DNA of 64,000 nucleotides from contig DYFC01000032.1 in NCBI GenBank assembly GCA_020725385.1, forward strand, positions 63,493-127,492, given 5' to 3'. The notes beneath the pieces were generated by a model that was not told where the DNA came from, did no database searches, and worked only from the letters and a program-made list of their open reading frames with translations. The position numbers and the translations under genes were made by a program. The stretch's first letter is position 1. The number at the start of each line of letters is the position of its first letter. This document shows positions 38,438 through 55,306 of the stretch, piece by piece. This DNA comes from Nitrospira japonica. Its GTDB lineage: Bacteria; Nitrospirota; Thermodesulfovibrionia; Thermodesulfovibrionales; SM23-35.

Positions 38438-38463
38438 AATTTTTTAAATAAGGAGGTACAAAA

Positions 38464-38664: not shown

Positions 38665-38672
38665 AAAAACCA

Positions 38673-38709
38673 AAACCCCCTGACTTTTATTCTCAGGGGG
38701 TTTATTTTT
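38673..38709 (+). terminator. Intrinsic terminator after csp
   Basis: AAACCCCCTGA...TCAGGGGGTTT followed by ATTTTT. Confidence 0.8.
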
Positions 38710-38725
38710 CAAAAAGGGGAGTTAA

Positions 38726-39100
38726 ATGTTAAATAAAAAGAAGCTTGCTGAACGGGATGAAAGAAAACGGTGTGAACTTGATACAGAACTTCTATCTTCT
38801 AAATATCCTGATATAGAATCTATTGTAATTACTATGGATTATTATCATAAGGGATACAAGGATTTGATGATGAAACGTACTGTAAATTTTTCTCCTGAAA
38901 GCCATGCTTATTTTCATATGGAGTGCATGAAAAATGACTGCCTTGAAGGCGGCTTTAATCTCACGCCTGTTATCTCATCTATGGTTAAAAGAAACATTAC
39001 ATCAGAAAAAGGAGAAATAAACTGTCAGGGTAATAATTTATCCGAACACGCCCGTATAATCTTTAAAATATCTATAAAGTATAATAGAAAAACTTCTTGA
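38726..39100 (+). CDS. Hypothetical 124-aa protein with Cys/His cluster (possible metal binding)
   Basis: ORF with GGGGAG SD; contains C-x4-C (ECMKNDCLEGGF) and a later C..H. No family recognised. Confidence 0.65.
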   Translation: MLNKKKLAERDERKRCELDTELLSSKYPDIESIVITMDYYHKGYKDLMMKRTVNFSPESHAYFHMECMKNDCLEGGFNLTPVISSMVKRNITSEKGEINCQGNNLSEHARIIFKISIKYNRKTS

Positions 39101-39366
39101 TGCTATTATGCTCATTTAAATGGGTTGTAAAAAAAGTATTTTCCTGCATCGATAACGTCGAAAAATAAATTTTCTCGAAATATCTACTTTATTCTAAATA
39201 CATTTTTGGGTTAACAGATAGGTGGTATAAATTTATTTTGAGCAATATCTGTATTTTTTGAGCCAACCTTTTTAGATTCTTTTCGAAACTTGTTAGCTTG
39301 ATAATCTTGTTATGATTATTTTTGGAGATTATTTATATATATATTAAGGTATAATATAAATGATAT

Positions 39367-40242
39367 ATGTACAATTTCGTAAACAAAAAAACTTCAACTT
39401 TTATCAATTTCATTCTCGGTCTGGTCCTATTGCTTTCAATTCTTGTTTTTATAAGAGACATAATCACATATAAATTTGAAAACAAAAAGAGGTCAAAAGA
39501 AAATATCTCTAATTTAAATCAACAGCCTTTTTCACCAGTTACAACTCAATTTATCGAATATGCTCCTTTAATGAAAAATAATATCTTCGGAATACAATCA
39601 GGAGAGCTAAAACAACTAACAGCTTCAGCAACACCTGTTATTCGACAGACAAATTTTACATTGATTGGTACTGTGTCAGGTCCCAAAGAGCTTAGTTATG
39701 CAATATTTAAAAACAATTCAGGAATGCAGGAAATATTTAAAATAGGTGATTCAGTTTTTGGAGCAGGAAAGCTTTATAGTGTTAAAAAAGATAAAGTATT
39801 AATGCAAAGTAGCGAAGGGATAAAAGAAGTTCCGATTGAAGACATTGTAAAAGTCAGGGAAATAAAGCCGGCTCAAGCCGCGCAAACATTGGGAGTAACT
39901 GGTTTTACTCAAAAAGTCGGCAGAAGCTCTTATATAGTCGATCAGTCAAGGCTCCAGCAAATGATAGCAAGTCCAGCACAAATAATGACAGATGCAAGAC
40001 TTAAACCGAATTCCTCTAATGGCAAAGAAGAAGGTTTTATTCTAAGTGAAGTAAAAGCCGGTGGAATTTATCAAAGCCTCGGGCTTCAGGATGGAGATGT
40101 GCTTTTAAGAATTAATGAATATGATATATCAAATCCTGAGATGGCATTACAGGCGCTTACCGCACTTAAAGGGCTTGATAGGGTACAAATTGATTTAATC
40201 AGGGCAGGTTCAAGAATGACAATGAATTATCAAATTAAATAA
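39367..40242 (+). CDS. gspC: Type II secretion protein GspC (TM + HR + PDZ)
   Basis: N-terminal TM, LIGTV HR domain, PDZ with LGLQDGDVLLRIN; first gene of the gsp cluster. Confidence 0.88.
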   Translation: MYNFVNKKTSTFINFILGLVLLLSILVFIRDIITYKFENKKRSKENISNLNQQPFSPVTTQFIEYAPLMKNNIFGIQSGELKQLTASATPVIRQTNFTLIGTVSGPKELSYAIFKNNSGMQEIFKIGDSVFGAGKLYSVKKDKVLMQSSEGIKEVPIEDIVKVREIKPAQAAQTLGVTGFTQKVGRSSYIVDQSRLQQMIASPAQIMTDARLKPNSSNGKEEGFILSEVKAGGIYQSLGLQDGDVLLRINEYDISNPEMALQALTALKGLDRVQIDLIRAGSRMTMNYQIK

Positions 40243-40306
40243 AGTTATATTTGTATTATTTATAATGCTGACTTGAGATGTTGTTTGATGCTAAAATAGA
40301 CAAACT

Positions 40307-42637
40307 ATGAATTTCTTTTTACATAAAAAAATATTTATCAAAAAGATTCCCTCGTTCTATCTCTCAACCTTTATCTTTTTATTTATCCTAATTTTGTTAT
40401 TGATAATTCATCCCTCTTCTTTCTCGATGGACAGTCAAACATCTAATATCAAAGATAGCAAAACTAAGGAAAAAGATACCCAGAAGACTAAAGAAAAAAA
40501 GGTTACTTTTAATTTCGTAGATGTTGATATACCAGTGGTTGTAAAATTCATCAGCGAAGTGACCGGCAAAAATTTTGTTTTTGATGATAAGGTTAAAGGC
40601 ACCGTAACTATTATTGCACCTTCAAAATTATCTGTTGATGATGCTTTCAGTTTATTTACATCTGTCCTTGAATTAAAAGGCTTTACAATTATTCAGATGG
40701 GCAAAGTCTATAAAATAGTTCCTCTGTCTCAGGCAAGACAATCCAGCACAGAATTAATAAAAGACGAAGATAGAGCAGTTAATGATGCTTATATAACCAG
40801 AATTATTCAATTGAATTCTATCTCAAGTACAAAAGCAATGAATTTTCTCCAGCCACTTATATCAAAGGATGGACACATTTCCTCATACGGACCTGGCAAT
40901 ATGCTCCTGATAGTTGATTCTTCTGCTAATATCGAAAAAATAATAAAGATTATTGAAAGCATAGACAAACAGGATATTGAAGAGCCGGAACTTATCATGC
41001 TTAAATACGCATCAGCTGAAGAGGTCGTTAAAATGTTAAATGAATCTATCTCTACTGTAACAAAATCTCAAGCTCCAGCTGTAGGAGTAGGAGTCAGGCC
41101 TCCTGTAAGAGGTGAAACAGTATCAGGGGTTTCTGTTGATGAAACACGTCCGAATATTTTTGCGGATACAAGATTGAATGCAATTATAATGATAGCGGGT
41201 AAACAGGAAAAAGAAGAGATAAAGAGAATGATTAAACTTCTTGATATACCAATGCCTGAAGCTACAAGCAAAATTAATGTTTATTTTCTCGAATATGCTG
41301 ATGCTACCGAACTCTCAAAAGTTCTTGAGGGAATGATCTCAGGAATTTCTCAGATAAAAACAACCCAGACTGTTCAAGCTCCACAGAGTATCAAAGGACC
41401 TTTTGAAGCAGGAAGGATTGTAATATCACCAGATAAAGCTACAAATTCATTGATTATAGTTGCACCACCTGCTGATTATCAGAACATAATGCAGGTAGTA
41501 AAACAACTTGATAGAAGAAGGAAACAAGTTTATGTAGAGGCAATGATTGTTGAGGCATCCATAGACAATTTGAAAGAACTTGGAGCTCAATGGAGAATTA
41601 CTGCTGAAAAAAATAATGAACCTGTATTTATAAGTGGATTCGGGAAAATGGATGCATCTGCTATTAGTAATGTAATTTATGGACTAAGCGGAATGACATT
41701 GGGTGGTATAGGAAATTTTCTTAATGTTCCTGTTACAACAACTGATTCTTCCGGAAATACAACCACAACAACTCTGACAATACCGGGCTTTGCAGCTCTT
41801 TTTAGCTTGAATGAATTTAAAGGAGCTGTAAATGTGCTTTCTACTCCTCAGATACTGACATCTGACAATAAAGAAGCAGAGATAGTTGTTGGAGAAAATG
41901 TGCCTTTTATATCAAAAAGGGAACGCGATATTACTACATCAAGCACAATTCTAAATTCTATCGAGAGAAAAGATGTTGGCATAACCTTAAGGCTTACTCC
42001 GCAGATAACCGAAGGTGATTATGTTAAGATGGAAATCTATCAGGAAATATCTTCTTTGAAAGGTGATACAGAAAATATAATTCTTAATGTTGGTCCAACC
42101 ACAACAAAGCGTTCTACAAAAACTTCTGTTGTTGTTAAAGATAGCCAGACAGTTGTAATAGGCGGCCTCATGGAGGAAAAAGAAGAAGTCAATATTAATA
42201 AAGTGCCGTTACTTGGTGATGTGCCTGTATTGGGATGGATTTTTAAAAATAAAAAACAGGAAAAGAAAAAAACCAATCTCTTAATTTTCCTCACGCCACA
42301 TATCGTCAAAGAATCAGAACATCTTGAAAAGCTAAGTGAAAACAAGAAGTCTGAATTTGCAAAAGCAGAAGAAAGATTCAAACAAGGAGAATTGCTCGTT
42401 AAATTTAAAGAAGGTGTTAGTGAATCAAGAATCAATGAAATAATTTCTTTAGAAGAGGCTTCAATTATCAGCACCTCAAAATCTACAGGAGTATATAATA
42501 TAAAATTAAAGGAAAATATGGATGTATTGAAAGCAAAAGAGAAATTTATAAGTTATAAAGAAGTTCAGTTTGCTGAGCCGAATTATATGATTAAAATGCA
42601 ACATCATGAATCAAAAATTAAAAATGGAAATAATTGA
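40307..42637 (+). CDS. gspD: Type II secretion secretin GspD with a C-terminal subtilase-propeptide-like domain
   Basis: N0 domain (FNFVDVDI, TGKNFV), N1-N3 repeats, QVYVEAMIVE, LSTPQI, VPLLGDVPVLGWIF and NLLIFLTPHIV; extra domain at aa 691-762. Confidence 0.95.
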   Translation: MNFFLHKKIFIKKIPSFYLSTFIFLFILILLLIIHPSSFSMDSQTSNIKDSKTKEKDTQKTKEKKVTFNFVDVDIPVVVKFISEVTGKNFVFDDKVKGTVTIIAPSKLSVDDAFSLFTSVLELKGFTIIQMGKVYKIVPLSQARQSSTELIKDEDRAVNDAYITRIIQLNSISSTKAMNFLQPLISKDGHISSYGPGNMLLIVDSSANIEKIIKIIESIDKQDIEEPELIMLKYASAEEVVKMLNESISTVTKSQAPAVGVGVRPPVRGETVSGVSVDETRPNIFADTRLNAIIMIAGKQEKEEIKRMIKLLDIPMPEATSKINVYFLEYADATELSKVLEGMISGISQIKTTQTVQAPQSIKGPFEAGRIVISPDKATNSLIIVAPPADYQNIMQVVKQLDRRRKQVYVEAMIVEASIDNLKELGAQWRITAEKNNEPVFISGFGKMDASAISNVIYGLSGMTLGGIGNFLNVPVTTTDSSGNTTTTTLTIPGFAALFSLNEFKGAVNVLSTPQILTSDNKEAEIVVGENVPFISKRERDITTSSTILNSIERKDVGITLRLTPQITEGDYVKMEIYQEISSLKGDTENIILNVGPTTTKRSTKTSVVVKDSQTVVIGGLMEEKEEVNINKVPLLGDVPVLGWIFKNKKQEKKKTNLLIFLTPHIVKESEHLEKLSENKKSEFAKAEERFKQGELLVKFKEGVSESRINEIISLEEASIISTSKSTGVYNIKLKENMDVLKAKEKFISYKEVQFAEPNYMIKMQHHESKIKNGNN

Positions 42638-44162
42638 TGTAATAAGAGATGAAGATGTTGAATTACCTTTATTAAAAAATATTCCTCTTGGATTTGCAAA
42701 GAGCAATAACATATTCCCCATAAAAGTTCAAAATTCAGAATTAATCTGCGCAGTTTCAGATGATTCTGGATTACTTGCTTTGGCTGAACTCTCACGTACT
42801 CTTGGATTAAAACCAAGAGCTTTAAAGGCAAAGTCCGAAATTATAATAAATGCTGTAAATAAATATTACGGACAGTTAGGCTCAGCAGAAGAGGTTATGG
42901 ATACTATTACAGGAGAAGACCTTTCTTCTGTTGCTACAGAATTTGAGAAGCCAAAAGACTTGCTTGAGCTCACAGAAGATGCTCCTATTATAAGACTTTT
43001 AAATGCTATACTTCTTCAGGCTTTTAAAGAAAGGGCAAGCGATATTCATATTGAGCCTTATGAAAAAGTCCTTGAAGTTAGATTCAGAGTAGATGGAATT
43101 CTTCATAATGTATTATCTCCGCCTAAAATTATTCAGGATGCTTTAATAAGCAGGATAAAAATAATGGCTAATCTCGACATAGCTGAACAAAGGTTGCCAC
43201 AGGACGGCAGGATAAGACTTCTTCTTGCCGGAAGGGATATTGATATAAGAGTTTCTGTAATTCCTACTTCTTATGGAGAAAGAGCTGTTTTAAGACTGCT
43301 CGACAGAAAACAGGGTTTACTCGGACTTTGGGAAGTTGGATTCAGCGACGATGATTGTAAAAAAGTTGAGAGTTATCTGCAAAGATCAGATGGGATTATT
43401 CTTGTTACAGGTCCAACAGGAAGCGGAAAGACTACGACTCTCTATGCTGCATTAAACAGAATACATACAGAAGAGAAAAATATAATTACAGTAGAAGACC
43501 CGGTTGAATACCAATTAAAAGGCATCGGTCAGGTTCAGGTTAATCCTAAAATAGGGCTAACTTTTGCCTCAGGTCTAAGGTCTATATTAAGGCAGGATCC
43601 TGACATCATTATGGTAGGTGAGATTAGAGATATTGAAACTGCTGAAATGGCAATGCAGGCATCATTAACAGGACATCTTGTCTTGAGTACTCTGCATACC
43701 AATGATTCTCCTTCTGCTGTTGTAAGGCTTATAGACATGGGTATTGAGCCTTTTCTTATTTCCTCTTCTCTTTCGGTTGTTATTGCTCAAAGACTTGTCA
43801 GAACAATTTGCCCTGATTGTAAAGAAACCTATTCTCCTTCGGATACAGAAAAAGTTCTATTAAAAGATGTAATAAATATTCATATGCGAGAAATCACTCT
43901 CTCAAAAGGCAAGGGTTGCAGCAAGTGTAATAATAAAGGCTATATCGGAAGAACCGGTATATTTGAAGTTCTTGTTATTGACAATGAAATTCGCAATATG
44001 ATAAATGAAAAAATGGATTCTCAAACAATAAAAAACTATGCTTTATCAAAAGGAATGAAGACATTAAGGACCGATGGTCTCGAAAAAGCAATTAAAGGCA
44101 TTACAACTCTTGAAGAAGTATTAAGAGTTACCCAGAAAGATTATGCCGATCTTTCAATATAA
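42606..44162 (+). CDS. gspE: Type II secretion ATPase GspE
   Basis: ASDIHIEP, LPQDGR, GPTGSGKTT, LRQDPDIIMVGEIRD and CPDC...CSKC zinc motif. Confidence 0.96.
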   Translation: MNQKLKMEIIDVIRDEDVELPLLKNIPLGFAKSNNIFPIKVQNSELICAVSDDSGLLALAELSRTLGLKPRALKAKSEIIINAVNKYYGQLGSAEEVMDTITGEDLSSVATEFEKPKDLLELTEDAPIIRLLNAILLQAFKERASDIHIEPYEKVLEVRFRVDGILHNVLSPPKIIQDALISRIKIMANLDIAEQRLPQDGRIRLLLAGRDIDIRVSVIPTSYGERAVLRLLDRKQGLLGLWEVGFSDDDCKKVESYLQRSDGIILVTGPTGSGKTTTLYAALNRIHTEEKNIITVEDPVEYQLKGIGQVQVNPKIGLTFASGLRSILRQDPDIIMVGEIRDIETAEMAMQASLTGHLVLSTLHTNDSPSAVVRLIDMGIEPFLISSSLSVVIAQRLVRTICPDCKETYSPSDTEKVLLKDVINIHMREITLSKGKGCSKCNNKGYIGRTGIFEVLVIDNEIRNMINEKMDSQTIKNYALSKGMKTLRTDGLEKAIKGITTLEEVLRVTQKDYADLSI

Positions 44163-45318
44163 AGGCTATAAAACAGACGGCTCTGAGATTTCAGGCACGA
44201 TTGAGGCAAATAGTCACAGAGATGCTGTTATACGTCTTAAAGAATCAGGTCTTTATGCAAAAAGCATCTATGAAGCTACTAAAAGAAAAAGATTAAATGT
44301 TTTCAACAAACTTGATATTTCTTTTCTCCCCCATATAACAAGACAACTATCAACCCTGCTTTTTTCAGGTGTAACGTTAATGGATGCACTATCATCTATT
44401 TCACAGGAAAGTAAGGGTTCATGGAGAAATATATTAATAGACATAAAAGAAAAAATTGCAGGTGGCTCAAGTTTTTCTAGAGCACTTGAAGACTACAAAA
44501 ATATTTTTCCAGATTTTTACATAAACATGATTGCAGCAGGTGAGGCAAGCGGAACACTCGATGATGTACTAAAAAAACTTGCTGAATTTCTCGAAAGTCG
44601 CGAAAACATAAAAGCGAAAGTTAGGACATCAATGATATATCCTGTCTTCATGATAGGCATTGGTTTTATAGTACTTTCTTTTATTTTTGCTTTTGTACTT
44701 CCGAAGATAACAAAAATATTCAAAGATACACATAGCGTTTTGCCATTTATTACGGTTGCACTCATTTTCATAAGTGATATATTTCAAAGATTCTGGTGGC
44801 TTATTGTAGGTCTTATTTTAGCGATGTTTTTTCTTTTCAGAAAACTTAGAGAAAGCAAAAAAATATATTTTGACAGATTGATATTAAAACTCCCGGGCAA
44901 TATCATTCAAAGCCTTTATTACAGCCGTTTTACAAGAACATTAAGTTTTTTACTTGAAGGCGGTCTTCCAATGTTAAAAGCTCTTGAGCTTTCATCAAAA
45001 GCTATAGGAAATAAGGAACTTGAACTAAAAGTGATTGCTTGTGGTAAAAAAGTTTCAGAAGGCGCAAAAATATCAAGTTCTCTGGAAGGATTCCCTCCGG
45101 TGCTTTTGCAATTAATAGCTACAGGTGAAAAAAGCGGACAGCTTGCAACCATTTTAAATAATGCTGCCAATGCTTACGAAGAAGAATTTTCAAGGAAAAC
45201 AAGTAGAGCATTCTCATTGCTTGAACCTTTTATGATATTATTCATGGGCGTTATAGTTGGGATAATAGTTCTGGCAGTTCTTCTGCCAATTTTCCAGATG
45301 AACCAATTAATAAAATAA
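44143..45318 (+). CDS. gspF: Type II secretion inner membrane platform protein GspF
   Basis: Two T2SSF domains (AGEASGTL, YP, GEKSGQL, LLEP). Confidence 0.94.
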   Translation: MPIFQYKGYKTDGSEISGTIEANSHRDAVIRLKESGLYAKSIYEATKRKRLNVFNKLDISFLPHITRQLSTLLFSGVTLMDALSSISQESKGSWRNILIDIKEKIAGGSSFSRALEDYKNIFPDFYINMIAAGEASGTLDDVLKKLAEFLESRENIKAKVRTSMIYPVFMIGIGFIVLSFIFAFVLPKITKIFKDTHSVLPFITVALIFISDIFQRFWWLIVGLILAMFFLFRKLRESKKIYFDRLILKLPGNIIQSLYYSRFTRTLSFLLEGGLPMLKALELSSKAIGNKELELKVIACGKKVSEGAKISSSLEGFPPVLLQLIATGEKSGQLATILNNAANAYEEEFSRKTSRAFSLLEPFMILFMGVIVGIIVLAVLLPIFQMNQLIK

Positions 45319-45319
45319 G

Positions 45320-45391
45320 GTTCTTCTCCAAAAAAGTTGCTGAATAAATAGACAAACTGTCATTCCCGCGAAAGCGGGAATCCAGAAAAAT
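45320..45391 (+). repeat. Second copy of the TIR + REP-like end of the 22856-23037 element
   Basis: The first 48 nt match the reverse complement of 22990-23037 with one mismatch; hairpin GTCATTCCCGCGAAAGCGGGAATCCAG at 45359-45385. Confidence 0.88.
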
Positions 45392-45592
45392 ACAAAAAAT
45401 TATTATATTTATATCCTTTGCAGTAAACGCAAAGGAACGCTGCATATAGGTATTACATCTGAGATAATTAAAAGGGCATATGAACATAAAAATGGATTGG
45501 TTGAATGCTTTACCAAGAAATACGGTGTTCATAGACGTGTGTGGTATGAAATACAAGAATCTGTAGAGTCTGCTATTACAAGAGAAAAATAA
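45392..45592 (+). pseudogene. GIY-YIG nuclease (small YhbQ/SLX1-like family) pseudogene
   Basis: Manual translation (T)KNYYIYILCSKRKGTLHIGITSEIIKRAYEHKNGLVECFTKKYGVHRRVWYEIQESVESAITREK*. YIY...HIG motif, R..EH, FTKKY and AITREK are present. The start codon position reads ACA and there is a premature TAA at 45590. Confidence 0.85.
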
Positions 45593-45648
45593 AAAAAGAA
45601 AAGGAATAGCATAAATGAAGAAGCTATTTTTTATTAGGAGGACAATAA

Positions 45649-46110
45649 ATGAAAAAAACAAGATTCTGTAAATTTAACGCCAATAATGAAAAGGGTTTCA
45701 CATTACTTGAAATAATTGTGGTTGTATTTATACTTGGTCTTCTTGCTGCAATAGTTGCTCCAAAGATTATTGGCAGGACAGATGATGCAAGAATTGCTGA
45801 TGCCAAGATGCAGATAAGAAATTTTGAGACAGCCCTTAAACTATATAAACTTGATAATGGTTTTTATCCTGAAACATCCCAGGGATTACAGGCGCTTGTC
45901 GAACAACCTGCTACAGGCAGAATACCTCAAAAGTATAGACAGGGTGGTTATCTTGAACAAAAGACCATTCCTGATGATCCATGGGGCAATCCATATCTTT
46001 ACTTATGTCCCGGTCTACATGGAGATTTTGATATAATGAGTTTTGGAGCAGATGGTAAAGAAGGTGGAGAAGGTAAAGACGCTGATATAAGAAACTGGGA
46101 TATGAAGTGA
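45649..46110 (+). CDS. gspG: Type II secretion major pseudopilin GspG
   Basis: G|FTLLEI prepilin site, ALKLYKLDNGFYP, DPWGNPY and SFGADG..GGEG motifs. Confidence 0.96.
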   Translation: MKKTRFCKFNANNEKGFTLLEIIVVVFILGLLAAIVAPKIIGRTDDARIADAKMQIRNFETALKLYKLDNGFYPETSQGLQALVEQPATGRIPQKYRQGGYLEQKTIPDDPWGNPYLYLCPGLHGDFDIMSFGADGKEGGEGKDADIRNWDMK

Positions 46111-46151
46111 TAACTGTGATATGCAGAAATAATATAAATATTATCTTTAAA

Positions 46152-46214
46152 AATGCAGGATGCAAAATGTAAACTACAGGATGCGAGATACAGAAGGTAA
46201 GATACAACATGCTA
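46152..46214. repeat. Degenerate heptamer array (consensus GATRCAG) upstream of hicBA
   Basis: AATGCAG GATGCAA AATGTAA ACTACAG GATGCGA GATACAG AAGGTAA GATACAA CATGCTA. Confidence 0.6.
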
Positions 46215-46276
46215 TAGACTAAAATTCCCTCTTAGAAAATGGGGGTAAAGGGGCTTGTAAAAGGAGGTGATTTTAA

Positions 46277-46480
46277 ATGAAACTCAAGGTAATAGTTCAT
46301 AAAGCAGAAGAAGGAGGATTTTGGGCAGAGGTTCCCTCTATTCCAGGGTGTCATACTCAGGGAGACACCTGGGAAGAGCTATTACAGAATATTTATGAAG
46401 CAATTGAAGCATGTCTATCGATTGATGTAGAAGATATTGAACTGAGTCCTGATGATAAAGTGCTGGAAGTTGCTGTATGA
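46277..46480 (+). CDS. hicB: HicB family antitoxin (short, no DNA-binding domain)
   Basis: [24 protein letters not shown]...EAIE motif. Confidence 0.9.
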
Positions 46481-46683
46481 AAACCATATCAGGCAGAGAA
46501 CTGTGCAGGATATTAGAGAAAAAAGGCTGGCAATTGAAAAAGATTCATGGTAGTCATCATGTTTATATGATGGCTGGCAGAAATGAAAGAATTAGTGTGC
46601 CTGTTCATGGCAATAAAGACTTAAAAATTGGTATGTTAAGATCAATAATGAAACTTGCAGTAATTAGTGAAGATGAATTATAA
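46477..46683 (+). CDS. hicA: HicA family mRNA interferase toxin
   Basis: LEKKGW....[17 protein letters not shown]; overlaps hicB (ATGA). Confidence 0.92.
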
Positions 46684-46898
46684 AATGTAAGACTTAAATG
46701 ATACCTAAGCCCAATGAATAAAATATTCAGTTATTTTTAGAAATTTTAATGTATTAACTGTATTTTTAGGTTAATTGTGTTTAATTTGCAAAGGAAACAA
46801 AAGTAATCCGCAACTCTTCTCCGTAACTTTATTGTACGTATCTGTTTTATTATAATTACGAACAACGAAAATGGATAAAGGTTTTTGTATAATATTTC

Positions 46899-47342
46899 AT
46901 GAAAGTCATTTCTTATAAAGGCGTTACTTTAATTGAACTTGTTGCAGTATTATTTATAGTCTCGCTTGTGGTTGCGATTATATTTCCTTCTTTTGAGATT
47001 TTCGGTGAAAACAAATTAAAATCAGAAGCCCTTGAAATTGGTTCTATATTAAAATATCTAAATGAAAGCGCATCTTCTTCAAAAGAGACCTTTTCAATTG
47101 TCTTTGACTTTAATGAGCAGACTCTCATATGGAATGAAAAGGAAGGACAAAGAAAAAAGAAATTCGAAGATATTTCAGGCGTTGAGACCCAATCAAACGG
47201 ACTTGTTAACAGAGGCGAGTTAATATTATTTTTCCCCCCAACCGGAATTCAACAAAATATTATTGTGCATTTAAATAGAGATGATAAAAAACTCATGGTT
47301 GCACTTAATCATTTAAACGGTAAAATAAAAATATATGATTAG
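46899..47342 (+). CDS. gspH: Minor pseudopilin GspH
   Basis: G|VTLIEL prepilin motif; position in the operon. Confidence 0.8.
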   Translation: MKVISYKGVTLIELVAVLFIVSLVVAIIFPSFEIFGENKLKSEALEIGSILKYLNESASSSKETFSIVFDFNEQTLIWNEKEGQRKKKFEDISGVETQSNGLVNRGELILFFPPTGIQQNIIVHLNRDDKKLMVALNHLNGKIKIYD

Positions 47343-47700
47343 AATGTCCTGGTCAAGAAACCTTCATTATCAGGAAAAAGGCTTTACACTTCTTGAAGTT
47401 CTAATATCACTTGCAATAATTAGCGGGCTACTAATAACTCTGATTTACACTGTGAATTATCATCTCGGAATAGTAGAAAAACAGGAGACGGTCACAATCG
47501 GCACCATGCTTGCCAGAAAAGTCTTATCTGAAATGGAAAACAAGCCTGAAAATAAAAAAGGAGTCTTTGAAAAACCATATGAACAATACTCTTTTGAAAC
47601 TATTTTACAAGATTCCCCATATCCTGGGATTTCTGAATTTACTGTGACAGTCAAATCTGAAAAAGAAGAAATTAAACTCAATGAATATATTCTCAAATAA
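47335..47700 (+). CDS. gspI: Minor pseudopilin GspI
   Basis: G|FTLLEVLISLAI; size and position. Confidence 0.82.
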   Translation: MIRMSWSRNLHYQEKGFTLLEVLISLAIISGLLITLIYTVNYHLGIVEKQETVTIGTMLARKVLSEMENKPENKKGVFEKPYEQYSFETILQDSPYPGISEFTVTVKSEKEEIKLNEYILK

Positions 47701-48289
47701 AAAATCAATTAATGGTTTTACTTTAATTGAAATTCTTGTCGCTGTCACAATACTCTCTGTAGTTCTTACAGCAATCTACAGTACTTTTTTTTTACTTCAA
47801 AGGGCAACAGAAAATTCAGATGAATCTATAACAAAAATTCAGGAAGCGAGAAAAGCTATTGAAATTATAAGGTGTGAGCTTGAATCAGCGGTTTTTAATG
47901 AGAATATAAAAGATACCCAAATAAAAATAAAAGATAAAGATTATTACGGTAAACCTGCTTCTCAAATTATTTTTACAACATTTACATCGTTAAAACCGGG
48001 TCTATCAAAACTTTCATATTATATAGAAGAAAAAGACGGGAGATTAACTCTTTACAGAAAGATTGAATCAATGCTATCGGATGAAACTGAAAATACAGCT
48101 GATCTTATTGAAGGTATTGAGGGATTCCTAATCGAAGCTCAATTTGAAGATAAATGGGTTAAGACGTGGGATACGGGAATTAACTATAATATTCCAGAAC
48201 AAATAAGAATAAACTTAATATTCAAAATAAAAGACAGGGAAATAACCCTCACAGATATTGCAAAACCAATGTATGGCAAATCAATTTAA
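47681..48289 (+). CDS. gspJ: Minor pseudopilin GspJ
   Basis: G|FTLIEILVA, W..TWD and IPEQIRI motifs. Confidence 0.85.
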   Translation: MNIFSNKKSINGFTLIEILVAVTILSVVLTAIYSTFFLLQRATENSDESITKIQEARKAIEIIRCELESAVFNENIKDTQIKIKDKDYYGKPASQIIFTTFTSLKPGLSKLSYYIEEKDGRLTLYRKIESMLSDETENTADLIEGIEGFLIEAQFEDKWVKTWDTGINYNIPEQIRINLIFKIKDREITLTDIAKPMYGKSI

Positions 48290-49169
48290 GATTAAGAACC
48301 AAAAAGGCATTGCACTTGTAGTTGTTCTTCTTGTGCTTGCTTTATTGACAGCTATGGTTACCGAGTTTGCGTACCGGGTTTATACAGGGACTAATGATCT
48401 TTATAACTGGCGTGATAGCCAGAGACTCTCACTCCTTGCAAAATCAGGCATCAATCTGGCAGTAAGATACATAAAAGATATGAATGATAAATTTAGTAAC
48501 ACAGTAGATATGTCTTTTAAGGAACCTTCAGAAAGCTTTAATGGAGAAATAAGAATAAAAATAGAGGATGAGACAGGAAAATTCAATCTTAATAGCCTTG
48601 TTTATCCTGATGGAAGAACTCTAAATATTACAGCTTATAAATCATTTCAAAGACTTCTCGAATTATTGTCTTTAGATAAAACTATTGCTGACAGAATCGT
48701 GGACTGGATAGATGCTGATACCACCCCAAACATAACAGGATCTGAAAATATGACTAAAAATAGCATCCTGAGTAGTGTAGATGAACTGCTTTTGATTAAT
48801 GGAATAAACAGAAGTGATTATGATAAATTATCACCATATGTTACTGTTTATGGAGCCCGTGATAATCTTATTATCAATGTCAATACCGCAGGAGATGTTG
48901 TTTTAATGAGCCTTTTTGATAAAAGTAAAGGAATTTTTCCTGTAACAAAGGATAAAGCTAATTTTTTAATACTGAGGAGAAAAAATAAACCCTTAAGTTC
49001 CGGGGAATTTAATTCAGAAGCTGGCACTTCTTTTTCTGCAAATCAAATAACAGATACGGCATCAATGTTCTCAATACACGCTATTGCAACAAATGGAAAT
49101 ATAAAAAGGATAATAGATATGGTAATGAACAAAGATAAAGGCAGAATAGAATACTGGAGAGAATATTAA
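48258..49169 (+). CDS. gspK: Minor pseudopilin GspK
   Basis: G|IALVVVL, DETGKFNLN, IVDWIDAD, ELLLINGI, PYVTV and INVNTA motifs. Confidence 0.92.
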   Translation: MQNQCMANQFKIKNQKGIALVVVLLVLALLTAMVTEFAYRVYTGTNDLYNWRDSQRLSLLAKSGINLAVRYIKDMNDKFSNTVDMSFKEPSESFNGEIRIKIEDETGKFNLNSLVYPDGRTLNITAYKSFQRLLELLSLDKTIADRIVDWIDADTTPNITGSENMTKNSILSSVDELLLINGINRSDYDKLSPYVTVYGARDNLIINVNTAGDVVLMSLFDKSKGIFPVTKDKANFLILRRKNKPLSSGEFNSEAGTSFSANQITDTASMFSIHAIATNGNIKRIIDMVMNKDKGRIEYWREY

Positions 49170-50230
49170 TGAAATCTTTGTTTATTGATATAAAGGACAA
49201 CGAAACAAGATGCTATTTCTTTTCGGTTAAACAGGGCAAATACGAACATATCGAAACAAAAGTTCTTAACAGAGCAGGCAATTATGTTTTTGAAATAAAA
49301 AACTCTGGCAATCTTGACGAGGTAATCTTAAGTCTTCCACTTAACATGCTCAATTTCAGGGTGCTTGAATTGCCTTTTAAAGATAAAGAAAAAATACTTG
49401 AGGTTCTGCCATTTGAACTTGAAGGAATGATACTTGGTGGTTCTGATAAAGTCATAATGGATGCTATAGTTATCAAAAGAATTGATACCAAATATAAAAT
49501 TCTTGCTGTTTATATTGAAAAAAGCATTTTAGGTAAAATTCTTTCTGAATTAAAAAGTTCTTCTTTAGAGCCTTCTTTAATAACTTCTATTGAACTAAGG
49601 AATGTATTAAACGACTTTTCTACTGAAAAACTTATAAATCCTGTTAATATTGATGATGCAGAAAGAATCAAATTTGCGATAGAAGAAATTATCAATCCTT
49701 CAATAAATTTAAGGAGAGGAGAATTTGTTTTCAAACAGCATATAGAGGAGACAAAAAAGGGGTTGAAAGTTGCGTCAATCCTTTTGCTTTTTATTTTATT
49801 CACAATATCCGCTGATATCATCTTCCAGTTATACACCACAAGAAGTGAAATCTCTAATATTAAAAAAGAATTAAGGAAACAATATCTTGAGCTTTACCCA
49901 CAAGAAAAAAATGTGGTTAATGAATATTACCAGCTCCAATCCCACTTAAAAGAGCTTATCGACAGAAACAGCTATTTATCCGGCATATCTACTTTGAATA
50001 CACTAAAGACCCTATCACAAATAGATCGCAAGTCAGCAGTTTTCAATGAGCTAATTATTGAAAAAGGCAACTTGATACTTAAAGGAGAGGCAGATAATCT
50101 TAATGACATTCAACAAATAAAAGATAATTTATCACGTAATTTCGAAAATGTAGTTATATCTGACTCAAAATCTTCATTACAAAATAAGATGCTTTTTACA
50201 ATTACAGCACTGGAGAAAAAAGTTGAATAA
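49169..50230 (+). CDS. gspL: Type II secretion protein GspL
   Basis: Actin-like cytoplasmic part (FRVLELPF, LPFELE), INLRRGEF, TM and periplasmic PilN-like domain. Confidence 0.82.
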   Translation: MKSLFIDIKDNETRCYFFSVKQGKYEHIETKVLNRAGNYVFEIKNSGNLDEVILSLPLNMLNFRVLELPFKDKEKILEVLPFELEGMILGGSDKVIMDAIVIKRIDTKYKILAVYIEKSILGKILSELKSSSLEPSLITSIELRNVLNDFSTEKLINPVNIDDAERIKFAIEEIINPSINLRRGEFVFKQHIEETKKGLKVASILLLFILFTISADIIFQLYTTRSEISNIKKELRKQYLELYPQEKNVVNEYYQLQSHLKELIDRNSYLSGISTLNTLKTLSQIDRKSAVFNELIIEKGNLILKGEADNLNDIQQIKDNLSRNFENVVISDSKSSLQNKMLFTITALEKKVE

Positions 50231-50729
50231 GATTACCGGAAATAATAAAAATCTCTATTTTGTAGCTCTAATTATAATTTTATCTGTATTAATAATATTA
50301 GGTCTTAAACAACTACGTAATGATAAGAAAGAATTGCTGAATCTTCGAACACAGCAGAAAGAAATATCCGTGATAAAAAACAAAATATCCTATCTCAATC
50401 AAAAAGTAAGCTTTTATGAATCAAAGAAAAGAATAGGGAATGCTTCTGGCATAATACAAATTTCTGATGAAATATTTTCATCAACGGGTTTGAAAAATAA
50501 ATTGAAAAGTATTAAAAACTCTGGTACAAATCATACAGTTAACGGGATTGAAGAAATAGCCGATGTTACTGTAGAAAAAGTATCCATGAATGAATTATTA
50601 AATATATTATACAGAATCGAAAACTCTCCTTCTCTTGTTTCAATTAAAAGAATTTCTATAAAGAAAGATTTTGAGAACCCCCAACTTCTTAATATAAATA
50701 TGGTTATTTCATACATAAGGCAAAAGTGA
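50223..50729 (+). CDS. gspM: Type II secretion protein GspM-like
   Basis: TM, coiled coil and ferredoxin-like end (ELLNILYRIE); position. Confidence 0.72.
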   Translation: MNKITGNNKNLYFVALIIILSVLIILGLKQLRNDKKELLNLRTQQKEISVIKNKISYLNQKVSFYESKKRIGNASGIIQISDEIFSSTGLKNKLKSIKNSGTNHTVNGIEEIADVTVEKVSMNELLNILYRIENSPSLVSIKRISIKKDFENPQLLNINMVISYIRQK

Positions 50730-51526
50730 TAAATAAAAAAGCAAAATTTAGAATATACCTTGCCTTCATATTTATTCTTCCATTGATTTTCTGGGCATTC
50801 TGGTTTGTATTCTCGGGCTCTACGATAATAACTATTATAGAAAAGGCCGCTGAAAACAATTCTTTGCAAATTGAAATTAAGGGATTCAAAAAAGGATTTC
50901 TTTATAATATATTTGTTGATGAAATTATTGTAAGATCAGCAAATGGAGAAATAATGACTCTGAACAATATAAATTCAAAAATAAATCCCTTTAAACTTTT
51001 GATGAAGAATCTTGACATGTCACTCGAAGGAGATTCTGGCAATGGTAAAATTAAAGGAATTATAAGTTTTGGAAAAGAAAACACCAATGGTAAATTTGAG
51101 TTTAAAAGCATTGATTTAAATGCTTTTTCTTTTTTAAGAAAAACAAAAATAAAAGGTTCTGGAAATATATCAGGTTCTTTTGTTTTTAATAATAAGGAGT
51201 TACATATAGAATTTATTTCCAGAAATCTATCCCTTGAAGATATAGAATTATCAGGAATCAAAACACCAATAAGTTGTTTTCATTCAATGTCGGGAGCAAT
51301 CAATGTTAATAACAATTTAATAAGTATAGAATCTATCTCATTTGACGGGCAAAATATTTATGCGAGACTAAAAGGTTACATAAAAGATTATATCGCGGAT
51401 ACAACCCTTGAAATAATGCCTGATAAAGATTTTACTGACAACCCTTTTATATTTGCAGGACTCAAACAATATGAGGTATCCCCGGGCTATTATTTAATTC
51501 CATTAAAAGGTGAGTTCCTTATTTAA
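50726..51526 (+). CDS. gspN: Type II secretion protein GspN-like
   Basis: N-terminal TM and beta-rich AsmA-like body; position after gspM. Confidence 0.68.
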   Translation: MINKKAKFRIYLAFIFILPLIFWAFWFVFSGSTIITIIEKAAENNSLQIEIKGFKKGFLYNIFVDEIIVRSANGEIMTLNNINSKINPFKLLMKNLDMSLEGDSGNGKIKGIISFGKENTNGKFEFKSIDLNAFSFLRKTKIKGSGNISGSFVFNNKELHIEFISRNLSLEDIELSGIKTPISCFHSMSGAINVNNNLISIESISFDGQNIYARLKGYIKDYIADTTLEIMPDKDFTDNPFIFAGLKQYEVSPGYYLIPLKGEFLI

Positions 51527-51536
51527 AGGAGGATTT

Positions 51537-53810
51537 ATGTTAAGAATTATACTTTCAGCAATCATGCTTTTAAGTTTCATTTCATGTGGTTCTAATACAA
51601 ATCATATTGAAATAGCATCCAATAATAAGTTTGATGTAACCACAAACAATAATTCATTATTTAAAAACACTAATTTAAAAAATTACGTACCCGGAGAAAT
51701 ACTCATTAAATTTAAAGACGGAACATCTTTAATTAAAACGAATTTATTGCATAAAAATATAAATGCGCAGAAGCTGGGTGAGATTAAAAATTTAAAAATT
51801 CAACATATAAAATTGCCGGAGGAAACTTCTGTTGAAGACGCTATTGACTATTACAAATCTTATCCTGATGTTGAATTTGTTGAACCTAATTATATAGTTC
51901 GCACTGTGGCTATACCCAATGATCCCGGATATATTCAACAATGGGGGTTAAATAATACAGGACAATTTGGTGGAATACCGGGCGCTGACATAAGTGCACA
52001 AAAAGCATGGGAAGTTACTAAAGGCTCGGACAATATCATCATCGCAGTTCTCGATTCAGGGGTTTCCTATGACCATCCTGATTTAAAAGACAATATATGG
52101 GTAAATACAGCTGAGATGAACGGCAAAGCAGGAGTTGATGATGATAACAATGGTTATGTAGATGATTATTACGGATGGGATTATATAGATAATGATGGTT
52201 ATCCTTCAGATTATAATCAACACGGAACACATGTGGCTGGAATTATAGCAGCAAAAGGAAACAATAACACGGGTATCTCTGGTGTAATGTGGTCTGCAAA
52301 AATTATGGCACTGAGATTTCTTGGAGTAACCGGCACGGGAGATGTGGCAAGAGCTGCTGAAGCAATAGAATATGCTGTTGATAATGGCGCAAGAATAATT
52401 AATGCAAGCTGGGGTGGTTATGATTACTCTGCAACAGTCTATTCAGCCATAAACTATGCAAGACAGCATAACGTTCTTTTTGTAGCGGCAGCAGGAAATG
52501 AGAGTAATGACAATAATATATCGCCATTTTACCCTGCAAGTTACAACCTTCCAAATATTATATCTGTTGCTGCAACAGACCAGGGGGATCAATTAGCCTA
52601 TTTTTCGAATTATGGTAGCAACAAAGTTCATCTTGCTGCACCCGGTGTATCTATTTACAGCACAGTGCCCCATTTCTCTTATGGTAGCCCGGTTATTTTA
52701 TATTCCGAGAATTTTGATAGTGCTTCAGGCATTTTGCCTTTGCTTGGCTGGGTAAGAGGCGGGACTCAAAGTACATGGGCAATAACCGAAGGCACAGGAA
52801 TTAATGGTACTAACAGTCTTGAAGATAGCCCGGGGACGAATTATCTGAGCAATACCAATTCATGGGCAGGATATAAAACTTCCTTTAACTCACAAAAAAA
52901 CTACCTTTACAGACTCTATTTCAAATGGAAAGGTCATATAGACACCACCACGAATGACTTCTTTTATATAAATTACTCACAAGATAGTATTTTCTGGGAC
53001 TGGGCGGATTACAGGGATGGAAATAATCCATTATATGTTTCTGATTATACAGATGAAATAACATCAGCAGCAGATTTGCTCGATAAATTTTATATAGGGT
53101 TCGGACTAAAATCAGATTCCTTAGTAAACTATGAAGGTATAAATATTGATGACGTAGTTCTGCAAAAGTACTCTATTTCTGTAAGTAACTATTCATATGA
53201 ATCAGGTGGATGGAATGGTACATCAATGGCAGCTCCTTTTGTCTCTGGTGTAGCAGGTCTGATTCTTTCTGCAAACCCTTCATTAACCTACACTCAGGTC
53301 AAGGATAGAATATTGAATAGTGTTGATAAAATATCATCCTTGACAGGCAAAACAATTACCGGCGGAAGATTGAACGCTGCTTCAGCGCTGGGTGCTACAA
53401 TTCCTTCTGCTCCCTCAGGACTTTCTGCAACCGTAATCTCAAAAACTCAAATTAATCTATCATGGAATGACAATTCGGATAATGAAACAGGTTTCATGAT
53501 AGAAAGAAAAACCGGAGAGACAGGGAGTTATGAACTTATTTTCACAACTAATGCTAATATATCTTCTTACTCTGATACAGGACTTACACCAAATACTAAA
53601 TATTACTATCGTATAAAAGCATATAATGAAATAGGTGAATCTTCTTATTCCAATGAAGCAAATGCAACCACAAAAAAATCTTCTGGCGGCGGAGGAGGTG
53701 GTGGTTGTTCAATAGGTAGCACCCAAAATACTACAACTGCATTTGCAGATACAGCAGTTTTATTAATTCCGTTAATTATTTTACTTATTGTAAAAAGAAG
53801 AACAAATTAA
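51537..53810 (+). CDS. Lipoprotein subtilase (S8) with propeptide, inserted beta-domain, FN3 and a Gly-rich/Cys C-terminal sorting signal
   Basis: AAGGAGG SD before ATG 51537 (the track starts at 51510). Lipobox LLSFISC; triad VLDSG, HGTHVAG and GTSMAAP; oxyanion AAGN; FN3 PSAPSGL...YYYRIKAYN; tail KKSSGGGGGGGCSI-TM-KRR. Confidence 0.93.
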   Translation: MLRIILSAIMLLSFISCGSNTNHIEIASNNKFDVTTNNNSLFKNTNLKNYVPGEILIKFKDGTSLIKTNLLHKNINAQKLGEIKNLKIQHIKLPEETSVEDAIDYYKSYPDVEFVEPNYIVRTVAIPNDPGYIQQWGLNNTGQFGGIPGADISAQKAWEVTKGSDNIIIAVLDSGVSYDHPDLKDNIWVNTAEMNGKAGVDDDNNGYVDDYYGWDYIDNDGYPSDYNQHGTHVAGIIAAKGNNNTGISGVMWSAKIMALRFLGVTGTGDVARAAEAIEYAVDNGARIINASWGGYDYSATVYSAINYARQHNVLFVAAAGNESNDNNISPFYPASYNLPNIISVAATDQGDQLAYFSNYGSNKVHLAAPGVSIYSTVPHFSYGSPVILYSENFDSASGILPLLGWVRGGTQSTWAITEGTGINGTNSLEDSPGTNYLSNTNSWAGYKTSFNSQKNYLYRLYFKWKGHIDTTTNDFFYINYSQDSIFWDWADYRDGNNPLYVSDYTDEITSAADLLDKFYIGFGLKSDSLVNYEGINIDDVVLQKYSISVSNYSYESGGWNGTSMAAPFVSGVAGLILSANPSLTYTQVKDRILNSVDKISSLTGKTITGGRLNAASALGATIPSAPSGLSATVISKTQINLSWNDNSDNETGFMIERKTGETGSYELIFTTNANISSYSDTGLTPNTKYYYRIKAYNEIGESSYSNEANATTKKSSGGGGGGGCSIGSTQNTTTAFADTAVLLIPLIILLIVKRRTN

Positions 53811-53918
53811 GCCAGATAATGCAGACATTGTTCTTATAACTGAAACGTAAGAAGTAAATCGCAAACTATTAGCTCAAACTGTTTGAACCGTTAAAATTCG
53901 TTTTTTATAATATCTGTA

Positions 53919-54446
53919 TTATTTCAAATATATTAAATTCGCAAAAAAATGGAAGATTATGCCAGGCAATATGTTACCGGTTTTTAGATAAAGCCAGCCC
54001 ATAATCAAGGAGGGGAAGAAGCTGAGTAGAGAGAACCAGTCATTCGAGAACATTGCCTTCGGGAAATGGGATAAAGAAAATAGCAAACTTGTTATTAAAA
54101 CTGCTTTTAAATTTCTTTTTAAAGATTCCTGAATATATCCCCTGAAAAAAACTTCTTCAGGAAAAGCAACTCCTACGAATTGAAAGAGGATATCAGCAAA
54201 AGTAATTTTCTCAAAGTCATTTCCAAACACAAGATGGTAAGGAAGAAGTATAATAAATGATATAGAAAAACCGATCAAAATGTCCTTCAAAGAAAAATTC
54301 AATCTTATTCTACAACCTGACAAAAAAGGATATGCGATCATTAAAACAGGAAGAATGCCATAATACATTCCGCCAGGTTTTATATAATGAAGCATGAAAG
54401 AAAAGATGGTTACTAAAAAATAACCTAAAAGAACTTTAGATTTCAT
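53919..54446 (-). CDS. CPBP/Abi family glutamic intramembrane protease (myxosortase/JDVT-CTERM protease-like)
   Basis: EEVFFRG, FSLSH and HFFAN motifs; multiple TMs; convergent with the CTERM-bearing subtilase. Confidence 0.88.
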   Translation of the reverse strand: MKSKVLLGYFLVTIFSFMLHYIKPGGMYYGILPVLMIAYPFLSGCRIRLNFSLKDILIGFSISFIILLPYHLVFGNDFEKITFADILFQFVGVAFPEEVFFRGYIQESLKRNLKAVLITSLLFSLSHFPKAMFSNDWFSLLSFFPSLIMGWLYLKTGNILPGIIFHFFANLIYLK

Positions 54447-54627
54447 TTATAGATAATTTATTCTTTTTTCATGTTTTGTCAATAATGATGCTGACAGTTT
54501 ACAATACCTATCAGACTTTTATTATTGTTTACTTTATTTCCCCTCTCTAATAATCAGGTTAATAATTTAATTTCATATTTGCAATAATAAAGATTTCCTG
54601 AACTATAATTTGATAGATAACACTAAA

Positions 54628-54645
54628 CCGGAAATGATTTTCCGG
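54628..54645. promoter_or_regulatory. Inverted repeat CCGGAAA-N4-TTTCCGG, possible operator
   Basis: Perfect 7-bp arms in the AT-rich divergent region upstream of the RGPP uORF. Confidence 0.35.
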
Positions 54646-54704
54646 GTAAAATAAAGGTGGAAAAAATTAAACTATTAATTGCAGAATTGTAGTATTCTAT
54701 TATT

Positions 54705-54995
54705 ATGAAATATTATTATTTATATTCAGCAATTAAAAACAATAAACCATTTAACATACTATCGGCTTTATGTATTTTTATTATATTCGGGATATTGTTT
54801 ATATGTTATGACGATAATCTTCTGGATAATAATGACCCGCCGGTTTTCCTATATCAATCTTCTATCATAGTAAGCAAATTTATTTTTCAGCCTGAAAGAA
54901 TAAGACTACAGACCAAATTATTCAATTGCTCTTCCATTGATAAAAACCCGTTTCTTACCAGGGGACCTCCCACGGTTCTGGAATCTGAAGTTTAA
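54705..54995 (+). CDS. Small membrane protein ending in an RGPP motif (candidate ribosome-arrest leader peptide)
   Basis: One hydrophobic segment (ILSALCIFIIFGILFIC), spacer, then PFLTRGPP eight codons before the stop; 87 nt upstream of tatA. Confidence 0.65.
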   Translation: MKYYYLYSAIKNNKPFNILSALCIFIIFGILFICYDDNLLDNNDPPVFLYQSSIIVSKFIFQPERIRLQTKLFNCSSIDKNPFLTRGPPTVLESEV

Positions 54996-55082
54996 ACTAA
55001 TAAAGTTATTTATTCTCCGGATTATATTATTAATAACCCGGTAATTTTAGGCGTTTAAAAACCCATAAATAAGGAGTTTGCC

Positions 55083-55274
55083 ATGTTTGGATTAGGAACA
55101 CAGGAATTATTTCTTGTTTTATTAATTGTGTTTGTTCTTTTTGGTGCAACAAGACTGCCACAGATAGGGAGCGGGGTCGGACAGGCTATCAGAAATTTCA
55201 AAAAAAGTATTGCAGAGGCTGATGAAGAAAAACCTGGAAATGATACAAAAAAGGAGATAAGCAAAGATACTTAA
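55083..55274 (+). CDS. tatA: Twin-arginine translocase TatA/E subunit
   Basis: MFGLGTQELFLVLLIVFVLFGATRLPQIGSGVGQAIRNFKK; AAGGAG SD. Confidence 0.94.
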   Translation: MFGLGTQELFLVLLIVFVLFGATRLPQIGSGVGQAIRNFKKSIAEADEEKPGNDTKKEISKDT

Positions 55275-55306
55275 ATAAATATAAGAAAGAAAGGAGAAAC
55301 CTTATC

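Follow-up and report, generated by a model that had tools for sequence, protein, structure and literature searches.

The window analysed here is a stretch of 64,000 nucleotides from contig DYFC01000032.1 of Nitrospira japonica, low in G+C (∼ 29–38%); the source genome comprises 2.46 Mb in 71 contigs and is 96.6% complete. Genes were located as open reading frames (ORFs) and identified with Pfam and NCBIfam profiles. A complete gene string for a type II secretion system (T2SS), gspC–N, spans 39367–51526 of the plus strand. It is followed on the same strand by the gene for a lipoprotein subtilase zymogen of peptidase family S8 (51537–53810), and on the minus strand by the gene for a 175-residue CPBP (Rce1-like) glutamic intramembrane protease (53919–54446; PF02517, 79.6 bits), a candidate sortase. 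The gspN stop codon (51524–51526) is separated from the S8 start codon, an ATG at 51537, by the 10 bases AGGAGGATTT, and an AGGAGG site, a strong ribosome-binding site, precedes this ATG. A first-pass annotation of this DNA had described a subtilase gene 10 nt after gspN and then a convergent CPBP gene; the spacing is exact and the coordinates were confirmed. Two features are central to what follows: a tripartite sorting tag at the C-terminus of the S8 protein (53664–53807, plus strand) and a subtilase-prodomain-like tail on the secretin GspD (42341–42637, plus strand).

The S8 protein has 757 residues counted from the ATG. It begins with a lipobox (..SFISCG, Cys17), continues with a prodomain, a catalytic domain interrupted by an insert and an FN3 domain, and ends in the tag. 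Pfam assigns 202 bits to Peptidase_S8 (PF00082) and 58 bits to a Fervidolysin_NPro-like prodomain (PF22148), and also recognizes fn3. The Asp-His-Ser triad, the oxyanion Asn and the N-terminal prodomain that characterize family S8 are all present, and C17-G18, D173, H229, N321, S563 and the tag Cys724 are invariant in 57 tagged orthologues. The closest solved relative is the catalytic domain of deseasin MCP-01 (3VV3, E 9e-75). The insert of ∼ 170 residues (window 52700–53210, S8 residues ∼ 390–560) sits in the catalytic domain after the Asn region and ahead of the Ser region, and is skipped by both the Pfam and the 3VV3 alignment; S8 orthologues in other families have 610–640 residues and may be without it. 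A second, untagged S8 paralogue is encoded elsewhere in the source genome (C31:11146-23787), where a pilMNOPQ-type secretin operon lies a few kb upstream of it. This paralogue has 658 residues, is 44% identical and contains a prodomain and two FN3-like repeats.

The tail of the S8 protein reads GGGGGGGCSIG...TM...KRRTN, where TM stands for a transmembrane helix. An alignment of 19 tags gave the consensus GGGGGGCSIGxxQNxxTAxADxxVLLxPLxxxxIxRRxR, in which a run of Gly leads up to an invariant Cys; next come a polar spacer of ∼ 12 residues (SIGxxQNxxTAxAD), a TM helix that contains an invariant Pro, and basic residues at the end. Positions G13, G14, C15, G18 and P36 of the alignment are invariant; the Asp stands at Cys+14 and the Pro at Cys+21. 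The invariant-Cys motif, the TM helix and the basic cluster follow one another at the extreme C-terminus. A search of the genome for other GGGGC-TM-basic tails had been proposed in the first-pass annotation; two pattern scans of all ORFs and a hidden Markov model (HMM) of the tag agree that the S8 tail is the only one. Relatives positive with the tag HMM carry 1–2 tags per genome. Three other proteins of the source genome (C2:65371-66588, C28:18287-19126 and C26:36788-43762) have a different tripartite tail, ..P(T/A)(M/L)(T/N)(E/T)(W/Q)G followed by a helix and a basic end, which we take to resemble the IPTL-CTERM type.

The CPBP protein is the only PF02517 match in the source genome. Its catalytic motifs EExxxR, FxxxH and HxxxN are invariant in 20 orthologues, as are the individual residues E97, E98, R102, H127, H166 and N170, the signature of an Rce1-like protease. 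All 20 sequences match the NCBIfam models MrtS, Mrt_core, MrtP, MrtC, MrtJ, MrtX and MrtZ. For the window protein the scores (cut-offs in brackets) are 79 bits for MrtS (130), 71 for Mrt_core (100), 70 for MrtP (250), 60 for MrtC (195) and 48 for MrtJ (75), and among the 20 orthologues the best E-values are no better.

Whether tag and CPBP travel together was assessed in 41 relatives from the same genus, family and order. CPBP was found in 20 of the 41 genomes and tag HMM matches in 19; both occurred in 18 genomes, CPBP alone in two, the tag alone in one and neither in 20. The two genomes with CPBP alone (G003 and G016) are fragmented assemblies, the one with the tag alone (G006) has a divergent PF02517 protein elsewhere, and PF02517 gave no match in any of four tag-less genomes examined for it (G008, G019, G020 and G022). 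A wider sample was obtained by scanning one genome per species for CPBP relatives and using the best 80 of 440 loci, the titles of which are nearly all Nitrospirota, Thermodesulfovibrionales or similar. An S8 gene lies within 1 kb of CPBP in 56/80 of these loci and is tagged in 53 of them, and the pairs are both convergent, as in the window, and co-directional. Tagged ORFs other than S8 occur in 5/80 loci, and both of those scanned proved to be proteins with Ig-like repeats. The tag is thus present on proteins that are otherwise non-homologous, a thin sample since most clients are S8; its presence on Ig-like proteins fits a portable signal, because such a signal is expected on unrelated proteins. 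Co-occurrence across genomes and the side-by-side encoding typical of few-client systems are therefore both seen. These counts bear out the proposal of the first-pass annotation that the S8 tail and CPBP are a tag/sortase pair, and, as far as sequence comparison can tell, CPBP probably clips the S8 tag.

We consider it probable that the window contains a general T2SS operon of Thermodesulfovibrionia-type Nitrospirota with a two-gene cargo-and-sorting module appended at its 3′ end, in which CPBP would be the dedicated tag-processing enzyme. As part of the same explanation, the Mrt scores suggest that CPBP represents a branch of the myxosortase family that is new and uncurated. What can be read directly from the genomes is which genes are present and in what order, the tag itself, the co-occurrence and adjacency of tag and CPBP and the recurrent linkage to T2SS genes. 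Tag cleavage, lipidation, T2SS dependence and surface location are proposed by analogy with MYXO-CTERM/MrtX, JDVT-CTERM/MrtJ and Synerg-CTERM/MrtS. By this analogy, the S8 protein would be exported by Sec and then lipidated at Cys17, while the tag helix would keep it in the inner membrane. The tag Cys would be modified and CPBP would cut just after it; the T2SS would carry the protease over the outer membrane, and the protease would stay attached to the surface. The prodomain would process itself, leaving the mature enzyme hanging from its processed C-terminus. Because the lipobox Cys and the catalytic domain are separated by the prodomain, nothing but this prodomain would be held by the N-terminal lipid once autoprocessing has taken place. 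The subtilase had been called doubly anchored in the first-pass annotation. This description fits the zymogen, in which lipobox and tag are both present, but, judging from the position of the prodomain, would not fit the mature enzyme. Export of lipoproteins by a T2SS has precedents, e.g. pullulanase. If the proposal is correct, a Nitrospirota-wide family is added to the recently defined Cys-CTERM/myxosortase sorting systems, with an unusual client, namely a zymogen that starts with a lipobox, ends in a Cys tag and has its prodomain on the lipid-anchored side. The arrangement of secretion machine, single client and sortase in one gene string would also provide a natural genomic argument for a route from tag to sortase to T2SS.

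Several observations weigh against this explanation. All genomes used are metagenome-assembled genomes (MAGs) and mutually related, so that the co-occurrence counts, which cover the 41 relatives and the best 80 loci, overstate the number of independent events. The tag of the window itself matches no CTERM model of NCBIfam at E-values up to 10, and the 19 related tags give only weak matches, 11 of them to JDVT-CTERM (NF033191; best E 2.4e-4) and four to MYXO-CTERM (TIGR03901). CPBP and its 19 orthologues stay under all curated Mrt cut-offs. Of the 80 CPBP loci, 18 show neither S8 nor gsp genes, and CPBP is near a contig end in only five of these; in one genome (G016, locus L026) CPBP directly follows gspN and there is no S8. 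Other lineages provide at least 10 loci where the operon upstream of the module is pilMNOPQ-like and not a T2SS, so the linkage to the T2SS operon is specific to the family of the window. Finally, the portions of the literature examined contain no description of a protein that has both a lipobox and a Cys-CTERM tag, and the order of the processing steps given above is therefore a guess.

Most of the nearest described systems are among four tripartite tags that contain a Cys and are each paired with their own CPBP myxosortase, as set out in the main text of Haft (2023, 10.1101/2023.06.07.544157): JDVT-CTERM, Synerg-CTERM, MYXO-CTERM and CGP-CTERM. According to that text, JDVT-CTERM typically has one client per genome, the gene of which adjoins MrtJ, and Synerg-CTERM co-occurs with a divergent T2SS. 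The window family resembles JDVT-CTERM/MrtJ in its single invariant Cys, its tripartite tag and its one or few clients, usually encoded beside the CPBP sortase. As described there, however, JDVT-CTERM has a near-invariant Asp-Pro nine residues after the Cys and belongs to Pseudomonadota, whereas the window family has its Asp at +14 and its Pro at +21 and belongs to Nitrospirota. The window CPBP also reaches only 48 bits against the MrtJ cut-off of 75, its tag is not matched by NF033191, and the client of the window family is always or nearly always an S8 lipoprotein. With Synerg-CTERM/MrtS the family shares a Gly/Ser-rich lead ending abruptly in an invariant Cys, an invariant TM Pro and the association with a T2SS, and MrtS is the best NCBIfam match of the window CPBP, below cut-off as given above. 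In the published description, Synerg-CTERM has no spacer between Cys and TM helix and is confined to Synergistales, whereas the window tag has its polar spacer; the Synerg-CTERM model (TIGR04564) is absent from the eight families matched by any of the 19 tags. The T2SS link of Synerg-CTERM comes from phylogenetic profiling, while that of the window family is physical, within one operon.

Guo, Haft and Wall (2025, PMC11980579) describe Cys-dependent cleavage of MYXO-CTERM by MrtX and surface display via the T2SS. This system (client TraA) is similar to ours in having a Cys-containing tripartite tag, a CPBP-family sortase, for MrtX with experimental support, and surface display through a T2SS. 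It differs, as far as these descriptions extend, in its dozens of clients, a tag that is often GCGC and has no TM Pro or charge, and an unlinked housekeeping sortase; the window family has 1–2 clients, a single Cys, a TM Pro and a linked sortase. GlyGly-CTERM/rhombosortase, with VesB of Vibrio cholerae, offers a secreted serine protease with a tripartite tag that is processed by an intramembrane protease, given a new C-terminal attachment and brought to the surface via the T2SS. As presented in the published material, its processing enzyme is a rhomboid serine protease and not a CPBP protein, its tag is without Cys and the client is trypsin-like rather than a subtilase. Tag and CPBP of the window thus fall outside JDVT-CTERM, Synerg-CTERM, MYXO-CTERM and the curated Mrt cut-offs. 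Because the motif fits no described tag and CPBP is below all cut-offs, we file the module as an uncurated relative of the Cys-CTERM/myxosortase systems. By analogy, it may work like JDVT-CTERM/MrtJ, with a dedicated sortase beside its client, and its T2SS link resembles that of Synerg-CTERM/MrtS. The main text of Haft (2023) contains none of the terms subtilase, subtilisin, Nitrospir, Thermodesulfovibrio, secretin or GspD, and its supplementary tables might list such genomes. No description of this Nitrospirota tag/CPBP family was found in the literature searched.

The linkage to T2SS genes recurs among relatives. The order gsp genes, S8, CPBP is seen in 11/19 loci around the CPBP genes of relatives, and five or more gsp gene types are present in 21/80 CPBP loci. 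Four loci have CPBP directly after gspN and are without S8 (L026, mentioned above, L062, L073 and L104); in L123 CPBP lies between gspD and gspE and in L102 beside gspC-gspD. Such recurrence, and the fact that MYXO-CTERM and GlyGly-CTERM proteins have been reported to depend on the T2SS, make this system the most likely export route for the S8 protein, by analogy. The linkage runs in neither direction without exception. In L038, L039, L041, L042, L045 and L050 the genes that come after a complete gspC/D–N cluster with a tailed GspD are unrelated, and S8-CPBP pairs lie away from any T2SS gene in four loci of other families (L031, L033, L034 and L035) and in many of the 80 loci.

Two further observations concern gene arrangement. 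In L019, L022, L023, L027 and L029 a second tagged S8 gene lies upstream of gspC, so that the T2SS is flanked by two tagged proteases; in the window, the region upstream of gspC contains a 124-residue ORF and a CHASE2-cyclase gene and no second tagged S8. The loci in which the module is linked to pilMNOPQ are L080, L091, L092, L101, L106, L109, L115, L121, L125 and L128, and also L114 and L090. They often have two tagged S8 genes, and the secretin there is without a prodomain tail.

The tail of GspD (residues 679–776) matches the subtilase prodomain family PF22148 over residues 679–759 with 50.7 bits (cut-off 21) and is 32% identical to the prodomain of the neighbouring S8 (E 1e-12), which upholds the description of a propeptide-like tail in the first-pass annotation. 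An AlphaFold2 model of the isolated tail (mean predicted local distance difference test score 81) has the order beta-alpha-beta-beta-alpha-beta. Its best fold matches in the PDB are the subtilisin propeptides 1SCJ_B, 1SPB_P and 3CNQ_P (TM-scores 0.70–0.73 on these target chains, 0.72–0.73 for the first two) and fervidolysin 1R6V, found by Foldseek with a probability of 1.00 and E-values of only ∼ 5e-3 to 1e-2. The propeptides were found by fold search only; phmmer of the tail against PDB sequences gave nothing at E-values up to 1. Both the sequence score and the fold order therefore identify a subtilase prodomain. All of the homologues listed, at least 120 protein clusters, combine PF22148 with Secretin, and those that are named are Nitrospirota, except for one Deferribacteres-labelled MAG. 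A prodomain fused to the end of a secretin in so many clusters is of interest for T2SS biology; no description of such a secretin was found in the literature searched.

From GELLVKFK through AEPNY, the alignment of tails with S8 prodomains is gapless. The tail ends exactly five residues after the Tyr of EPNY in 13/28 sequences and within 10 residues in 22/28. In the S8 protein this region corresponds to the linker that leads to the catalytic domain, which starts with PNDP, and 3VV3 begins at the equivalent of residue ∼ 124. Since the tail ends in the linker where S8 prodomains are cut, it resembles a prodomain that has already been processed. The tail is like the subtilase prodomains (PF22148; 1SCJ_B, 1SPB_P, 1R6V) in family, fold and approximate end point, but it is attached C-terminally to a secretin rather than N-terminally to a protease, and is kept where no S8 was found. 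In a phylogenetic tree, 27 tails and 15 S8 prodomains part on one branch with support of 100/99. The single-branch split fits one old capture that was inherited with gspD; the alternative that tails were copied several times, and recently, from S8 genes nearby was rejected on the same split. In one genome (G040) in which neither a CPBP ortholog nor a tag was found, an untagged S8 gene (L047, C12, 9044-11482; 812 residues, lipobox and prodomain) lies between gspF and gspG of a tail-bearing T2SS.

A tail-bearing GspD is present in 32 of the 41 genomes, 13 of which have no orthologous CPBP. This does not agree with the view of the first-pass annotation that T2SS, S8 and CPBP are one dedicated unit: the T2SS is general and not dedicated to this protease. 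The neighbourhood survey that had been suggested for the three components accordingly gave a divided answer, in that tag and CPBP do co-occur and the tailed GspD does not follow them. Within the explanation that we regard as probable, the tail appears to be a separate, older and wider feature of a GspD clade that the tag/CPBP module would not require.

The tail might still have to do with subtilases in general. We can imagine that it is a captured prodomain acting in trans on subtilase cargo, holding it inactive, aiding its folding or handing it to the channel; many copies of the tail would surround the periplasmic face of the secretin, often with a free C-terminus at approximately the P1 position. 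We regard this as rather unlikely. If it were true, a chaperone- or inhibitor-like domain would be tethered to the secretion gate, and tail-bearing genomes without S8 would have lost the cargo more recently than the domain.

The first-pass annotation had gone further and suggested a dedicated T2SS, S8 and CPBP system in which the GspD tail docks the S8 protein and the lipoprotein S8 pilots the secretin instead of a pilotin. That the tail is a genuine subtilase-prodomain domain, with its resemblance to the neighbouring S8 prodomain, its fold matches and its end point shortly after EPNY, counts in favour of such docking, and S8 genes do occur at tail-bearing T2SS clusters after gspN, before gspC and, in L047, between gspF and gspG. 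A further prodomain-like match, located elsewhere than in gspD, occurs in 23/32 tail-bearing genomes against 1/9 tail-less ones, a weak association that is confounded by the relatedness of the genomes. The source genome also offers no obvious pilotin: PulS/OutS (PF09691) has no match in it, and the sole match to AspS-type pilotins (PF16549), inside a 735-residue ORF, is below cut-off (E 0.099). To our knowledge, however, many T2SSs are without a known pilotin. Against docking, three genomes that are 95%, 97% and 100% complete (G008, G019 and G020) conserve the tail including GELL.KF and AEPNY, and no Peptidase_S8 match was found in any of them. Conversely, tagged S8 and CPBP are both present in G025, the GspD-like ORFs of which have 647–656 residues and gave no match to the tail. 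With the 13 tail-bearing genomes that have no orthologous CPBP, the six complete tail-bearing clusters that run into unrelated genes and a tree that points to one old capture and no ongoing exchange, the suggestion that the tail docks S8 or that S8 serves as a pilotin is not supported, and we judge it distinctly improbable.

It is very doubtful that the S8 protein is instead an accessory or maturation part of the secretion machine, held in the inner membrane like the mycosin of the type VII secretion system (T7SS) and regulated or removed by CPBP. The top NCBIfam match of S8 is indeed T7SS mycosin (183 bits, below the cut-off of 278), the protein has a C-terminal TM helix, its gene overlaps or abuts gspN, and one domain of the secretin could be a binding partner of a subtilase. 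The resemblance to mycosin, however, is confined to the general S8 core, several relatives have the same T2SS complete without any S8, and the S8-CPBP pairs remote from T2SS genes as well as the Ig-like repeat proteins with the same tag do not fit a part of the machine. Finally, the idea that CPBP has nothing to do with S8 and serves as a membrane protease of a general or immunity type, with the tail a mere anchor and the adjacency accidental, can appeal to the other roles of CPBP proteins, e.g. bacteriocin immunity (main text of Haft, 2023, 10.1101/2023.06.07.544157), and to the 18/80 loci without a nearby S8 or gsp gene, but is scarcely credible given the 18/2/1/20 co-occurrence, the adjacent tagged S8 in 53/80 loci in both orientations, the invariant tag Cys and TM Pro and the fact that the best NCBIfam matches of CPBP are all myxosortase-type models.

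The T2SS to which we tentatively assign the export of S8 contains GspD, GspE, GspF, GspG–K and GspC/L/M/N, with the prepilin peptidase encoded outside the cluster; all genes of the cluster are on the plus strand. GspC (39367–40242) is a T2SS protein C with a PDZ domain (PF11356 42 bits, PDZ 24 bits) and scores 141 bits with NF041515 GspC_delta, below the cut-off of 150. The secretin gene gspD (40307–42637) encodes 776 residues by the longest ORF, of which a database copy omits the first 40; it reaches 553 bits with TIGR02517 (cut-off 351), and Pfam recognizes the N0, Secretin_N and Secretin domains. A liposecretin reading of GspD was rejected, as there is no Cys in its N-terminus. The ATPase GspE (42606–44162; PF00437, 490 bits), the platform protein GspF (44143–45318; PF00482, 204 bits) and the major pseudopilin GspG (45649–46110; PF08334, 145 bits) come next. 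The minor pseudopilins gspH (46899–47342; below the TIGR01708 cut-off), gspI (47335–47700), gspJ (47681–48289; T2SSJ) and gspK (48258–49169; T2SSK_1st) were named from N_methyl motifs, T2SSJ, T2SSK_1st and a gene order that is conserved in relatives. They are followed by gspL (49169–50230; GspL_C, 32.5 bits), gspM (50223–50729), which is named from its position and a faint NF040576 match only, and gspN (50726–51526; TIGR04411, 80.6 bits, cut-off 50). The first-pass annotation had noted neither gspO nor a pilotin gene in the cluster, and this is correct; in addition to the pilotin results given above, the sole Peptidase_A24 match of the genome is on contig C3.

A gap of 790 bp between gspG and gspH is occupied by a toxin-antitoxin pair, hicB (46277–46480, plus strand, 67 residues; PF15919, 36.9 bits) and hicA (46477–46683, plus strand, 68 residues; PF07927, 69.7 bits), which thus lies inside the T2SS operon. 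In the closest relative, L018, gspG and gspH abut with no hicB/hicA between them. The pair, which the first-pass annotation had not mentioned, is an insertion in the operon and no part of the secretion or sorting system.

An Rfam scan of window positions 38000–56000 gave no match. Promoter and terminator scans returned 78 and 10 hits, against 76.9 and 8.1 in shuffled sequences; as neither is better than shuffled, we do not claim operon boundaries from them. Downstream of CPBP, an ORF of 1571 residues (55737–60452) contains FG-GAP repeats, four Glucodextranase_B-like domains, CarboxypepD_reg and fn3. It has no C-terminal tag and could be another secreted or surface protein.

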